64,000 nucleotides of DNA. Origin: Escherichia coli (GTDB lineage: Bacteria; Pseudomonadota; Gammaproteobacteria; Enterobacterales; Enterobacteriaceae). The DNA lies in the NCBI RefSeq assembly GCF_030013205.1, contig NZ_CP122648.1. One strand, 5' to 3'. Positions 28,201 to 52,200 of this stretch are shown here, in pieces. The position numbers are program-made. Position 1 is the stretch's first letter; the number at the start of each line of letters is the position of its first letter.

Positions 28201-31200
28201 GCAAGGCGCTGCGCCTGAGATTCACTCAACGTACCCAGCGTCATACACGCCTCCAGGCCCATCGCTTTTACCCCCTGCACCATCTGCTCCAGATAGGGCA
28301 TGTCGCGTTCGTGGGGATTCTTCCACGCCGCGCCCATACAGAAACGTGTCGATCCCGCCGCTTTCGCTTTTCGCGCCGACTCCAGCACCTGTTCAACTTC
28401 CATCAACCGCTCGGCTTCCAGCCCGGTTTTATAGCGCGAGCTTTGCGGGCAATATTTGCAATCTTCCGGACAAGCTCCGGTCTTAATTGACAGCAACGTG
28501 CTGACCTGCACCTGACGTGGATCGAAATGCTGACGATGCACCTGCTGCGCTTCAAACAGCAGATCCAGCAACGGTTTTTCAAATAATTCTGTGACTTGCG
28601 ACAATGTCCAGCGTGGGCGGTGAGCCATGGGGCTTCTCCAAAACGTGTTTTTTGTTGTTAATTCGGTGTAGACTCGTAAACCTAAATCTTTTCAATTTGG
28701 TTTACAAGTCGATTATGACAACGGACGATCTTGCCTTTGACCAACGCCATATCTGGCACCCCTACACATCCATGACCTCCCCGCTGCCGGTTTATCCGGT
28801 GGCGAGCGCCGAAGGTTGCGAGCTAATTTTGTCTGACGGCAGACGCCTGGTTGACGGTATGTCGTCCTGGTGGGCGGCGATCCACGGTTACAATCACCCG
28901 CAGCTTAATGCGGCGATGAAGTCGCAAATTGATGCCATGTCGCATGTGATGTTTGGCGGTATCACTCATGCGCCAGCCATTGAGCTGTGCCGCAAACTGG
29001 TGGCGATGACGCCGCAACCGCTGGAATGCGTTTTTCTCGCGGACTCCGGCTCCGTAGCGGTAGAAGTGGCGATGAAAATGGCGTTGCAGTACTGGCAGGC
29101 CAAAGGCGAAGCGCGCCAGCGTTTTCTGACCTTCCGCAATGGTTATCATGGCGATACCTTTGGCGCGATGTCGGTGTGCGATCCGGACAACTCAATGCAC
29201 AGCCTGTGGAAAGGCTATCTGCCAGAAAACTTGTTTGCTCCCGCCCCGCAAAGCCGCATGGATGGTGAATGGGATGAGCGCGATATGGTGGGCTTTGCCC
29301 GCCTGATGGCGGCGCATCGTCATGAAATCGCGGCGGTGATCATTGAACCGATTGTCCAGGGCGCAGGCGGGATGCGCATCTACCATCCGGAATGGTTAAA
29401 ACGAATCCGCAAAATGTGCGATCGCGAAGGTATCTTGCTGATTGCCGACGAGATCGCCACCGGATTTGGTCGTACTGGCAAACTGTTTGCCTGTGAACAT
29501 GCAGATATCGCGCCGGACATTTTGTGCCTCGGTAAAGCCTTAACCGGCGGTACAATGCCCCTTTCCGCCACACTCACCACGCGCGAGGTTGCGGAAACCA
29601 TCAGTAACGGCGAAGCCGGCTGCTTTATGCATGGGCCAACTTTTATGGGCAATCCGCTGGCCTGCGCAGCAGCAAACGCCAGCCTGGCGATTCTTGAATC
29701 TGGCGACTGGCAACATCAGGTGGCGGCTATTGAAGCGCAGCTACGCGAGCAACTTGCCCCCGCCTGTGACGCCGAAATGGTTGCCGATGTGCGCGTACTG
29801 GGGGCAATCGGTGTGGTCGAAACCACTCGTCCGGTGAATATGGCAGCGCTGCAAAAATTCTTTGTCGAACAGGGTGTCTGGATCCGGCCTTTTGGCAAAC
29901 TGATTTACCTGATGCCGCCCTATATTATTCTCCCGCAACAGTTGCAGCGTCTGACCGCAGCGGTTAATCGTGCGGTGCAGGATGAAACATTTTTTTGCCA
30001 ATAACGGGAAGTCAGCATGAGGGTTTCTGGCTACACTTTCTGCAAACTAGAAAGGAGGGTTCATGAAACTCATCAGTAATGATCTGCGCGATGGCGATAA
30101 GTTGCCGCATCGTCATGTCTTTAACGGCATGGGTTACGATGGCGATAATATTTCACCGCATCTGGCGTGGGATGATGTTCCTGCGGGAACGAAAAGTTTT
30201 GTTGTCACCTGCTTTGACCCGGACGCGCCAACCGGCTCCGGCTGGTGGCACTGGGTCGTTGTTAACTTACCCGCTGATACCCGCGTATTACCGCAAGGGT
30301 TTGGCTCTGGTCTGGTAGCAATGCCAGACGGCGTTTTGCAGACGCGTACCGACTTTGGTAAAGCCGGATACGGTGGCGCAGCGCCGCCGAAAGGCGAAAC
30401 CCATCGCTACATTTTTACCGTTCACGCGCTGGATGTAGAACGTATTGATGTCGATGAAGGTGCCAGCGGCGCGATGGTCGGGTTTAACGTCCATTTCCAC
30501 TCTCTGGCAAGCGCCTCGATTACTGCGATGTTTAGTTAATCACTCTGCCAGATGGCGCTATGCCATCTGGTATCACTTAAAGGTATTAAAAACAACTTTT
30601 TGTCTTTTTACCTTCCCGTTTCGCTCAAGTTAGTATAAAAAGGCTGAACAAGAAACAGAAAACACTGTAAATATCAATATGTTATGAAAGATTTAGTCTA
30701 AATAATAGACTGCATAATGCTACAAAACACAACATATCCAGTCACTATGAATCAACTACTTAGATGGTATTAGTGACCTGAGACAGAGCATTAGCGCAAG
30801 GTGATTTTTTGTCCTCTTGCGCTAATTTTTTGCCACACAACAGTCACATCTTCAAAAAATATGCAAAGCTTAGGGTTAATCGGCGGATGATTTTTGTCCA
30901 TTCATTTTGCGCGGGTAAGTTATGTGGTGGGTTATCGGCATCCTTTCCGTGGTTGTCATCGTGGCGACGCTTGTCGTTAGGTCACATCTGCAGGATATTG
31001 ATAATGACTATTAGCCATAAGTGGTTTCAACGCTTTGGGTAATGTAGTAGGCCACCCAGTTACCTGACTCATTAAATCTGTAAGCACAATTCAAACGAAT
31101 CGGACCGATATTATTGAATGTGCTGAGCGTTGTCCCACCAATACCATTTTTAACCAAAACTGTTGGGTTAGCAGATGATGACCCGGCTATCTTTATGTAA

Positions 31201-49200: not shown

Positions 49201-52200
49201 CACCACCCTGTCTACAGAGCCAGATGTGAAGGATGATGAGTAGAATTATCGCTATCATCGAAGGCATTGCGTCCTGATGTACTCCTGCAGGTAGTTAACC
49301 TGCGCGGTTATCCTGTCGATTCCACTTCGGAGACGGTAATAATTGAGTTCAGCATCTGCTGTAAGTCTTGGGCTTTCTCCATCGCCCATGCCGCTGGCTC
49401 TGGTCGTTGACTTTGCACAGGTGGCGGCGACTTGCAGGCGCTTACGACCAGCAGAAACATCAGCACGGAGACTTTCGATATCGAAGCAGAGGACATCAAC
49501 GACTGCTATAACCACTGGATGATATGGGCGCAGATAGCGCATGCAGACGTAACAAATATTCGAATTGAAGAACTGAAAGAACACCAAACCGCCTGATGGC
49601 GGTTTTTTCTTGCGTGTAATTGCGGAGACTTTGCGATGTACTTGACACTTCAGGAGTGGAACGCACGCCAGCGGCGCCCAAGAAGCCTTGAAACAGTTCG
49701 TCGATGGGTACGCGAGTGCAGGATATTCCCTCCTCCGGTTAAGGATGGAAGAGAGTATCTGTTCCACGAATCAGCGGTAAAGGTTGACTTAAATCGACCA
49801 ATAACAGGTAGCCTTTTGAAGAGGATCGGAAATGGGAAGAAGGCGAAGTCATGAGCGCCGGGATTTACCCCCTAACCTTTATATAAGAAACAATGGATAT
49901 TACTGCTACAGGGACCCAAGGACGGGTAAAGAGTTTGGATTAGGCCGAGACAGGCGAATCGCAATCACTGAAGCTATACAGGCCAACATTGAGTTATTTT
50001 CAGGACACAAACACAAGCCTCTGACAGCGAGAATCAACAGTGATAATTCTGTTACGTTACATTCATGGCTTGATCGCTACGAAAAAATCCTCGCCAGCAG
50101 AGGAATCAAGCAGAAGACACTCATAAATTACATGAGCAAAATTAAAGCAATAAGGAGGGGGCTACCTGATGTTCCACTTGAAGACATCACCACAAAAGAA
50201 ATTGCGGCAATGCTCAATGGATACATAGACGAGGGCAAGGCGGCGTCAGCCAAGTTAATCAGATCAACACTGAGCGATGCATTCCGAGAGGCAATAGCTG
50301 AAGGCCATATAACAATAAACCCGGTCGCTGCCACTCGCGCTGCAAAATCAGAGGTAAGGAGATCAAGACTTACGGCTGACGAATACCTGAAAATTTATCA
50401 AGCAGCAGAATCATCACCATGTTGGCTCAGACTTGCAATGGAACTGGCTGTTGTTACCGGGCAGCGAGTTGGTGATTTATGCGAAATGAAGTGGTCTGAT
50501 ATCGTAGATGGATATCTTTATGTCGAGCAAAGCAAAACAGGTGTAAAAATTGCCATCCCTACAACATTGCATGTTGATGCTCTCGGGATATCAATGAAGG
50601 AAACACTTGATAAATGCAAAGAGATTCTTGGCGGAGAAACCATAATTGCATCTACTCGTCGTGAACCGCTTTCATCCGGCACAGTATCAAGGTATTTTAT
50701 GCGCGCACGAAAAGCATCAGGTCTTTCCTTCGAAGGGGATCCGCCCACCTTTCACGAGTTGCGCAGTTTGTCTGCAAGACTCTATGAGAAGCAGATAAGC
50801 GATAAGTTTGCTCAACATCTTCTCGGGCATAAGTCGGACACCATGGCATCACAGTATCGTGACGACAGAGGCAGGGAGTGGGACAAAATTGAAATCAAAT
50901 AATGATTTTATTTTGACTGATAGTGACCTGTTCGTTGCAACAAATTGATAAGCAATGCTTTTTTATAATGCCAACTTAGTATAAAAAAGCAGGCTTCAAC
51001 GGATTCATTTTTCTATTTCATAGCCCGGAGCAACCTGTGAACACATTTTCAGTTTCCCGTCTGGCGCTGGCATTGGCTTTTGGCGTGACGCTGACCGCCT
51101 GTAGCTCAACACCGCCCGATCAACCTCCTTCTGATCAAACCGCGCCTGGTACCTCTTCTCGCCCGATTCTGTCGGCAAAAGAAGCGCAGAATTTCGATGC
51201 TCAACACTATTTTGCATCCCTGACACCAGGTGCGGCAGCGTGGAATCCTTCCCCGATTACCCTGCCTGCGCAACCTGACTTTGTTGTCGGCCCGGCGGGT
51301 ACTCAAGGTGTAACGCATACCACGATTCAGGCGGCGGTAGATGCGGCAATTATCAAGCGCACCAACAAGCGCCAGTATATTGCCGTGATGCCTGGTGAGT
51401 ATCAGGGAACGGTGTATGTCCCTGCCGCTCCGGGTGGAATTACTCTGTACGGTACAGGTGAAAAACCGATTGATGTGAAGATTGGGCTTTCCCTTGATGG
51501 TGGCATGAGCCCTGCCGACTGGCGTCACGACGTCAACCCGCGCGGCAAATATATGCCAGGTAAACCAGCGTGGTATATGTACGATAGCTGCCAGAGCAAA
51601 CGCAGCGACAGTATCGGCGTTCTCTGCTCTGCGGTCTTCTGGTCACAAAACAATGGCCTGCAACTGCAAAACCTGACCATCGAAAACACGCTGGGCGATA
51701 GCGTAGATGCGGGTAACCATCCGGCGGTGGCACTGCGTACTGATGGCGACAAAGTGCAGATCAATAACGTCAACATTCTCGGTCGTCAGAACACCTTCTT
51801 TGTTACCAACAGTGGTGTGCAAAACCGTCTGGAAACCAACCGTCAGCCGCGTACTCTGGTGACCAACAGTTACATTGAAGGGGATGTGGATATCGTTTCT
51901 GGTCGCGGCGCAGTGGTGTTCGATAATACCGAATTCCGCGTGGTGAACTCACGTACTCAGCAAGAAGCGTATGTGTTTGCACCGGCAACACTGTCTAACA
52001 TCTATTACGGTTTCCTCGCCGTAAACAGCCGTTTCAATGCTTCCGGTGATGGCGTGGCGCAACTGGGCCGCTCGCTGGATGTTGATGCTAATACCAACGG
52101 TCAGGTGGTGATCCGTGATAGCGCCATCAACGAAGGTTTTAACACGGCGAAACCGTGGGCCGATGCGGTGATTTCCAATCGTCCATTCGCAGGTAACACC

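Follow-up and report, generated by a model that had tools for sequence, protein, structure and literature searches.

How did a prophage with the integration genes of phage lambda and the virion genes of a P22-like podovirus come to lie at the lambda attachment site of an Escherichia coli strain, and what has become of its remaining genes? The question arises from a 64,000-nucleotide stretch of E. coli DNA (contig NZ_CP122648.1; hereafter the window, with positions counted from its first letter), in which a prophage element of 20,361 bp (30630-50990) lies exactly in attB between ybhB and ybhC. An earlier note, made by reading the window by eye, had described a mosaic defective prophage of about 20 kb, and the measured length agrees. 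We consider it very likely that the element is a cryptic remnant of a temperate P22-like podovirus (Lederbergvirus) that was disabled by two microhomology deletions private to its strain. The window is 100% identical to the chromosome of E. coli ETEC4079 (NZ_CP122643.1), isolated from pig faeces in Belgium, and no other genome among the 5,426 complete E. coli genomes compared covers at least 80% of it in a single place. A literature search on strain ETEC4079 found no papers.

Insertion at the lambda attachment site

The 15-bp core of the lambda attachment site (GCTTTTTTATACTAA) occurs twice in the window, once with a single mismatch at 30630-30644 (GCCTTTTTATACTAA) and once exactly at 50976-50990. 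The two copies stand at the exact end coordinates of the element, and the chance expectation is 0.00 matches. An empty site of 415 nt, rebuilt from the two flanks with a single core between them, is contiguous in 3,487 of the 5,426 complete genomes, so the insertion is precise, as the earlier note had proposed; in the sister strains ETEC1748 and ETEC4069 the rebuilt site is matched at 100% identity. The orientation is that of lambda: on the ybhC (gal) side int adjoins attL, and on the bio side the late operon ends next to attR. In the annotation produced by the Prokaryotic Genome Annotation Pipeline (PGAP), the phage genes are flanked by bioA-ybhB to the left and by ybhC-ybhJ to the right, and no tRNA genes were found in the element. 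Outside the element the window consists of ordinary chromosome, which runs from dinG to bio on one side and from ybhC to modE on the other.

Two deletions removed the early region, lysis genes and part of the tail

The element contains two internal junctions, A and B, which were resolved by pairwise BLAST against CUS-3, JEP4, FORC_082 and ETEC1701 and by inspection at the level of single bases. Junction B (49479..49480) lies at a TA microhomology and fuses the middle of Rz (codon ~72; CUS-3 position 24291) to the 3' part of the open reading frame (ORF) upstream of xis (CUS-3 position 40052). In CUS-3 coordinates (24291-40052) the loss amounts to 15,761 bp and comprises the N-terminal half of Rz, the endolysin, the holin, the late promoter, Q, nin, O/P, cII, cro, cI, N and kil/cIII/erf. 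What is left of Rz is its C-terminal 74 amino acids (aa), with an embedded Rz1 without a start (49258-49479, minus strand); on the other side of the junction stands the 3' remnant of a lambdap35-like ORF with a terminator-like hairpin (49480-49605, plus strand; hairpin at 49586-49605).

Junction A (41778..41780) lies at a TAG microhomology and fuses codon 15 of the tail needle gene to the beginning of a small ORF downstream of the coat gene. The loss is ~2,080 bp and includes gp10, gp4, needle codons 1-14 and most of the small coat-distal ORF. The native N-terminus of the needle, MADSNLNVPVIIQA, has been replaced by unrelated residues, and the ATG of the small ORF (41797) is out of frame. At this place PGAP annotates a 316-aa 'tail needle knob protein' (WP_282843021.1; 40867-41817, minus strand) with a non-canonical ATT (41817) as its start codon; in the needle frame a canonical start first appears 43 codons further in, as a GTG at 41688. 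Judged from its sequence, this apparently intact coding sequence is a fusion generated by the deletion. The gp26-like needle named in the earlier note is therefore right as to family but not as to intactness, the first 14 codons being gone, and the deletion of gp4 and gp10 had escaped that reading.

When 23 query proteins of CUS-3 and ETEC1701 were searched against the whole 64-kb window with tblastn, only Rz residues 72-145 were found; gp4, gp10, endolysin, holin, Q, O, P, cII, cro, cI, N and erf had no match. The PGAP annotation contains no repressor/cro, N, Q, replication or lysis genes in the element. The lack of repressor, replication, antitermination, holin and endolysin genes, which had been noticed by eye, is thus upheld except for the Rz fragment found beside it. 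What a functional inducible lambdoid prophage needs (immunity, N/Q with a late promoter, replication and lysis) was not found in the element.

Both junctions are private to this strain. Among the 5,426 complete genomes, a 200-bp probe across each of them has an end-to-end match in ETEC4079 only, and the probe halves are common separately, in 766 and 2,385 genomes. Adding the two losses back to the element gives 20.36 + 2.08 + 15.76 = ~38.2 kb, a normal size for a Lederbergvirus (39.2 kb in JEP4 and 40.2 kb in CUS-3). All ORFs that remain have kept their full length and share 95-100% identity with genes of complete phages and prophages, which argues that they are intact because the deletions are recent and not because of selection.

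A P22-like virion module with a CUS-3-type head

All structural ORFs belong to P22-like PHROG families and follow the gene order of P22, reading leftward on the minus strand as TerS, TerL, portal, scaffold, coat, needle, gp14, gp7, gp20, gp16-type protein, immI and tailspike. The assignment of the virion genes to the P22-like type in the earlier note is thereby borne out, and it can be refined, since the head and packaging module is of the CUS-3 type. Identities to the CUS-3 proteins are 95% for the coat (417 aa; 41839-43092), 99% for the scaffolding protein (297 aa; 43111-44004), ~100% for the portal (732 aa; 44095-46293), 99% for the large terminase subunit (471 aa; 46295-47710) and 99% for the small terminase subunit (146 aa; 47707-48147), whereas the coat and portal are only 29% and 35% identical to those of P22. 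By analogy with P22, the TerS gene probably contains the pac site. Three small leader ORFs of the late operon occupy 48150-49267 on the same strand (DUF2560 at 48150-48392, an Sf6 gp66-like ORF at 48496-48876 and orf50 at 49115-49267).

On the tail side, the needle is of the knob type (40867-41778, without start codon and first 14 codons) and is 80% identical to that of Sf6. It is followed by the gp14 homologue (151 aa; 40412-40867) and the gp7-type ejection protein (230 aa; 39717-40409), which are 86-98% identical to their counterparts in P22, Sf6 and CUS-3, and by the gp20-type (461 aa; 38321-39706) and gp16-type (754 aa; 36057-38321) ejection proteins, all on the minus strand and all with PHROG matches. 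In both ETEC4079 and W13-16, a wild-boar strain described below, PGAP labels the gp16-type gene a pseudogene ('lytic transglycosylase domain-containing, missing N- and C-terminus'). The ORF is open and coupled to the gp20 stop, shows 93-94% identity over residues 36-754 to proteins of the viable phages Sf101 and APC_JM3.2, and is 98% identical to a 759-aa coding sequence in ETEC1701, suggesting that the pseudogene label is probably wrong. A Pfam scan of the 754-aa protein found no lytic transglycosylase (SLT) domain, although PHROG labels its relatives as transglycosylases.

The tailspike gene (690 aa; 31011-33083, minus strand) differs by one nucleotide from that of ETEC1701. Residues 1-113 of the protein form a full-length Head_binding domain (PF09008, E=3.6e-66), and the N-terminus matches the structures of the P22 and Sf6 tailspike N-domains (PDB 1LKT, 2XC1 and 7SG7). 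For the receptor-binding part (residues ~285-690) no homologue was found in 50,697 phage records, none of which covers at least 80% of the protein. The full-length tailspike was seen only in prophages of E. coli from pig and wild boar, namely those of ETEC4079, ETEC1701 and W13-16 (O139:H1). Between attR and the end of the tailspike gene there is also a hydrophobic mini-ORF of 30 aa (MWWVIGILSVVVIVATLVVRSHLQDIDNDY; 30923-31015, plus strand) with no family match, which may be spurious.

Synteny of homologous proteins and a P22-type head-binding domain on the tailspike, both expected of a Lederbergvirus virion module, are thus present. The tblastn search of the 64-kb window detected neither gp4 nor gp10, and the needle has lost codons 1-14 and a canonical start, so that the element represents a defective derivative and not a complete module.

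A lambda-type integration module

The right end of the element is lambda DNA with few changes. Window positions 49479-50990 align to lambda 29235-27724 at 97.7% identity, a block that spans the 3' end of lambdap35, xis, int, the P' arm and the core. The integrase gene (356 aa; 49832-50902, plus strand) encodes 351 of the 356 residues of lambda Int (98.6%) and is identical to the int of ETEC1701, and xis (72 aa; 49636-49854, plus strand) encodes 69 of the 72 residues of Xis (95.8%). The catalytic residues of lambda Int are R212, K235, H308, R311, H333 and Y342, and none of the five substitutions (positions 114, 162, 164, 245 and 248) falls on any of them. A cII box of the lambda pI type (TTGC-N6-TTGC) is located immediately 5' of xis, at ~49610-49623.

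Of the two attachment sites, attL (B-O-P' on the minus strand; 50903-50990) combines the exact core with a P' arm that falls inside the 97.7% block. The other, attR (P-O-B' on the minus strand; 30626-30835), consists of the core at 30630-30644 and a P arm with the P1 and P2 arm-type Int sites. Aligned to lambda 27742-27534, this arm is only 86% identical, with P1 and P2 invariant in the alignment. The proposal that Int, Xis and both arms are essentially lambda therefore holds closely for the two proteins and the P' arm and less closely for the P arm. Orthologues of Int and Xis, a duplicated core in attB and lambda-like arms, with arm-type sites P1 and P2 in the P arm, together constitute a lambda-type integration module; when every other protein of the element was compared with lambda, no match apart from Int and Xis was found.

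The mismatch in the attR core is an A>G change at window position 30642 (T>C on the lambda strand), which converts the C core-type Int-binding site from CAGCTTT to CAGCCTT. The change is private to this element, being absent from ETEC1701, W13-16, FORC_082 and lambda, and may weaken core binding by Int and excision.

The immI cassette and neighboring small ORFs

Between the tailspike gene and the ejection genes lies a region that had been recognized by eye as resembling the immI region of P22 with Mnt, Arc and Ant, and the gene content confirms this. The antirepressor gene ant (309 aa; 33184-34113, minus strand) matches phrog_245 (E=1e-97), and its product is 58% identical to P22 Ant and 91% to that of CUS-3. 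Upstream of it stand arc (48 aa; 34180-34326, minus strand; PHROG match) and, in divergent orientation, mnt (83 aa; 34431-34682, plus strand), the product of which is 95% identical to CUS-3 Mnt. At 34356-34402, consensus matches mark two divergent promoter-like sites that overlap, one resembling Pant on the minus strand and the other resembling Pmnt on the plus strand. An intrinsic terminator (33147-33166, minus strand) separates ant from the tailspike gene at the position of P22 t_ant. The spacer between arc and ant can be aligned to the sar region of P22 and contains, on the correct strand, a full-length match to the model of the sar antisense RNA (Rfam RF00262; 34114-34180, plus strand). 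Just upstream of it, at the 5' end of ant, is a strong promoter-like site resembling Psar (34079-34107; 10/12, extended -10). Divergent mnt and arc-ant, overlapping promoter-like sites, a sar-like RNA and a terminator after ant make up the P22 immI arrangement, and the cassette (Mnt, Arc, sar and Ant) looks complete and functional.

Several small cargo ORFs adjoin mnt. The first, orf105 (34679-34996, plus strand; phrog_19844), overlaps the mnt stop and is probably co-transcribed with mnt. It is followed by orf61 (35006-35191, minus strand; phrog_7586), by an unannotated ORF of 74 aa with two predicted hydrophobic helices (35217-35441, plus strand; terminator-like hairpin after it at 35447-35466) and by orf121 (35455-35820, minus strand; phrog_1365, function unknown). 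The 74-aa ORF has no PHROG match and occupies the position of the prophage-expressed genes of the P22 orf59a/sieA type, where ETEC1701 has a different gene of 59 aa. The orf121 sequence is 99% identical to an unannotated P22 ORF (13861-14223, plus strand) between sieA and orf59a, and this counterpart overlaps the annotated sieA promoter and mnt terminator of P22. Function scans of orf105, orf61, orf121 and the 74-aa ORF with NCBIfam, Pfam and PADLOC gave nothing significant; two marginal PADLOC matches to orf61 were judged to be chance.

Known phages with the same architecture

Among described phages, the viable temperate Lederbergvirus JEP4 (Escherichia phage; MT740315) is like the element in having a 356-aa lambda-type integrase, with 98% DNA identity across int/xis/attP, and in having a portal, scaffold and coat of the CUS-3 type (97.6% DNA identity) together with a 317-aa knob needle (94% DNA identity). 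Phage Huey (PQ850609), likewise viable and temperate, carries the same type of int/attP and forms lysogens on K-12 (PMC11990801), and phiHS3, a third such phage, inserts upstream of ybhC and goes through a full cycle of integration and excision (bioRxiv 10.64898/2026.05.19.726188). In contrast to the element, JEP4, Huey and phiHS3 have complete genomes of ~38-39 kb with gp4, gp10, lysis, Q, replication and immunity genes, and they differ from it in tailspike and in the contents of the ant moron. The combination of a lambda integrase with a P22-like virion is thus the normal architecture of a subgroup of Lederbergvirus and is not peculiar to the element.

The likeness to CUS-3 (CP000711) covers the genes from coat to TerS (95-100%), Mnt (95%), Ant (91%) and the gene order; CUS-3 is complete, differs in its integrase and att site, and has an endosialidase as tailspike and a needle without a knob. 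The head genes of CUS-3, HK620 and Sf6 have diverged from those of P22, and the ant moron is hypervariable (PMC2629481). Lambda itself (NC_001416) shares Int, Xis, the core, the P' arm block, the P1/P2 sites, attB and the orientation with the element, but not the attR core substitution or a closely similar P arm, and nothing related extends beyond the ORF upstream of xis.

Related prophages at attλ

The comparison with attλ loci of other strains, which had been suggested as a check, shows that the site is empty, occupied by an apparently complete prophage or occupied by a differently deleted one among the sister strains. ETEC1701 (NZ_CP122938.1), from the same Belgian pig collection, carries at this site an apparently complete P22-like prophage, in which the head module is of the P22 type and the early region is full. 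An IS3-family element in its early-left operon (locus coordinates ~882-2110) and a few pseudogenes near xis were also seen, and the prophage may be partly disabled as well. The left chromosomal flanks of the two strains differ by 1 mismatch in 13.6 kb and their int genes by none. On the tail side, 30643-35011 has 1 mismatch and 39297-41780 has 0, and Int, Ant, Arc, Mnt, gp7 and gp14 are identical proteins in ETEC1701 and ETEC4079. Relative to ETEC1701, three patches have been replaced (35012-35433, 38136-39296 and 41780-49828). The edges of the first two are graded and homologous; the third, which holds the CUS-3-type head, starts abruptly at junction A and fades by homology inside xis. The near-identity of flanks, int and tail runs, together with the clustering of the mismatches, indicates that the elements of ETEC4079 and ETEC1701 go back to a single integration, after which modules were exchanged with other P22-like phages, and at the level of sequence comparison we take this as shown.

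A further relative is found in W13-16 (NZ_CP080235.1; O139:H1, from wild boar), in which the attλ remnant has the same tailspike and a different deletion. This one joins the middle of the needle gene to the early-left operon (locus coordinates 12866-13516) and keeps cIII, kil, the recombination genes, xis and int. Because the W13-16 deletion is independent, decay at the attλ locus has happened more than once. The P22-like prophage at attλ in FORC_082 (locus 23460-26525) was observed to have lost lysis, Q, replication and immunity and to contain truncated genes. Decay of P22-like prophages at attλ appears to be common.

Origin of the element and alternative explanations

In the mechanism we propose, the parent would have been a JEP4/Huey-like phage with a CUS-3-type head and packaging module, a knob needle, a P22-type immI region and a lambda-type int/xis/attP. 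Int-mediated recombination would have placed it in attB between ybhB and ybhC in the lambda orientation, in an integration shared with ETEC1701 by descent, after which central modules would have been exchanged by recombination. In the lineage of ETEC4079 two illegitimate, microhomology-mediated deletions would then have inactivated the prophage. We regard the site-specific entry, the shared descent with exchange (from the clustering of mismatches) and the two deletions as the demonstrated steps of this proposal. The simplest history is a homologous swap of modules followed by two deletions.

Some observations weigh against this interpretation. The configuration with both junctions rests on a single assembly. 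The sar match scores 29.3 bits (E=0.03), below the Rfam gathering score of 43, and the promoter and terminator scans yield consensus matches only. Junction A itself could be read as a non-homologous joint between two P22-like genomes, with a tail side of the ETEC1701 lineage attached to a foreign head, the partners being, for instance, the two prophages of a tandem double lysogen at attλ, or else a prophage already resident there and a CUS-3-type phage that infected the cell. This would fit the absence of mismatches to ETEC1701 over 2.5 kb on the left of the junction and the CUS-3/FORC_082/JEP4 type on its right, the P22-type head of ETEC1701, and a foreign patch that runs from 41780 to ~49828 and ends by homology inside xis. 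It would also fit the second matching place that the junction probes report in the ETEC4079 record; in a separate search with JEP4 gp4-gp10, 924 E. coli genomes match and ETEC4079 is not among the 60 matches listed. However, gp10 is ~92% identical between the lineages over 1.5 kb, so a homologous crossover in the now-deleted segment followed by the 2.08-kb deletion explains the data equally well. JEP4 natively has a 94%-identical knob needle beside CUS-3-type gp10, gp4 and head genes, and the two other tail-side patches have graded homologous edges. We therefore consider a two-genome origin of junction A unlikely. A related idea, that both junctions are the two ends of one illegitimate replacement, was rejected, as the patch runs ~350 bp past junction B and ends inside xis.

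Two further explanations are much less probable. If one or two complete prophages had been collapsed or joined into a chimera during assembly, this would account for a configuration seen in one assembly only, and the earlier note had named a contiguous early region elsewhere as the finding that would overturn its view. However, the junctions fall at microhomologies of 2-3 bp and not at repeats, which disfavors misassembly, and the genome is closed and complete. Both ends of the element are continuous with ordinary chromosome in standard gene order, and the W13-16 derivative shows an independent deletion at the same locus. An assembly artifact is thus very improbable, and the early region was not encountered in the flanks. 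Slightly less probable still is that the element is functional and selected, as a capsid-forming satellite resembling the capsid-forming phage-inducible chromosomal islands (cf-PICIs) or as a domesticated locus that produces particles. The intact int, xis, both att sites, TerS, TerL, portal, scaffold and coat would be in keeping with such a role, but the regulator and primase/replicase that characterize these islands are lacking, as is a late promoter. At the junctions Rz, Rz1 and the needle are cut short out of frame, just 1 genome among 5,426 has the configuration, and the 95-100% identity of the genes to those of complete phages makes their intactness a matter of recency.

Remaining functions of the deleted prophage

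A cryptic remnant of this kind may retain some activity. From TerS to int (47600-51100), no promoter-like (sigma-70) sites were found where 5.1 were expected. With the late promoter and Q gone, no promoter between TerS and int, and a terminator after ant, the structural ORFs are intact but promoterless and should be silent. The immI cassette and the small cargo ORFs beside mnt are likely still active, with Mnt presumably repressing Pant in a self-contained unit. Both int and xis are intact; pL has been lost and the cII-dependent pI box has been kept. The expected outcome would be an element incapable of induction, replication, late transcription, lysis or the formation of DNA-retaining heads, which would stay locked in its site unless a lambdoid phage supplied the missing functions in trans.

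It is conceivable, though we consider it doubtful, that the remnant matters in trans, as a start for packaging at pac, as a donor of tailspike and ejection modules and through junction A as a newborn mosaic boundary. If so, a pac site in the TerS region, placed there by analogy with P22, would provide a fixed chromosomal packaging start for an infecting helper of the CUS-3, HK620 or Sf6 type. This would lead to high-frequency, unidirectional headful transduction of ybhB-bio-uvrB-moa, akin to lateral transduction, and incoming P22-like phages could gain the tailspike and ejection modules by recombination.

Outside the element, a separate observation concerns the interval between dinG and rhlE (2001-6003), where the PGAP annotation shows a 'type III effector' of 670 aa (2001-4013, minus strand) together with two hypothetical proteins (4707-6003). 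We take this arrangement to differ from that of K-12, and the interval may be a small island.

Implications

The element is a strain-private case of a well-known kind, the defective lambdoid prophage, and its history is one of routine prophage decay. The cryptic lambdoid prophages of K-12 (DLP12, Rac, Qin and e14) are likewise deletion remnants that have lost immunity, replication or lysis, are fixed in their sites and keep some intact genes; they are older, more eroded and shared across lineages, whereas the element is recent, confined to one strain and of the podoviral P22-like type. Its importance beyond annotation is small. For annotation, two PGAP errors can be flagged, an 'intact' needle coding sequence that is a fusion artifact and an intact ejection gene labelled as a pseudogene, and a tailspike is marked that is confined to prophages of E. 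coli from pig and wild boar. The locus also illustrates that P22-like phages use the lambda int/attλ module as a standard cassette that can be interchanged between them, and it provides a base-resolved example of how a single microhomology deletion removes immunity together with every lethal function.

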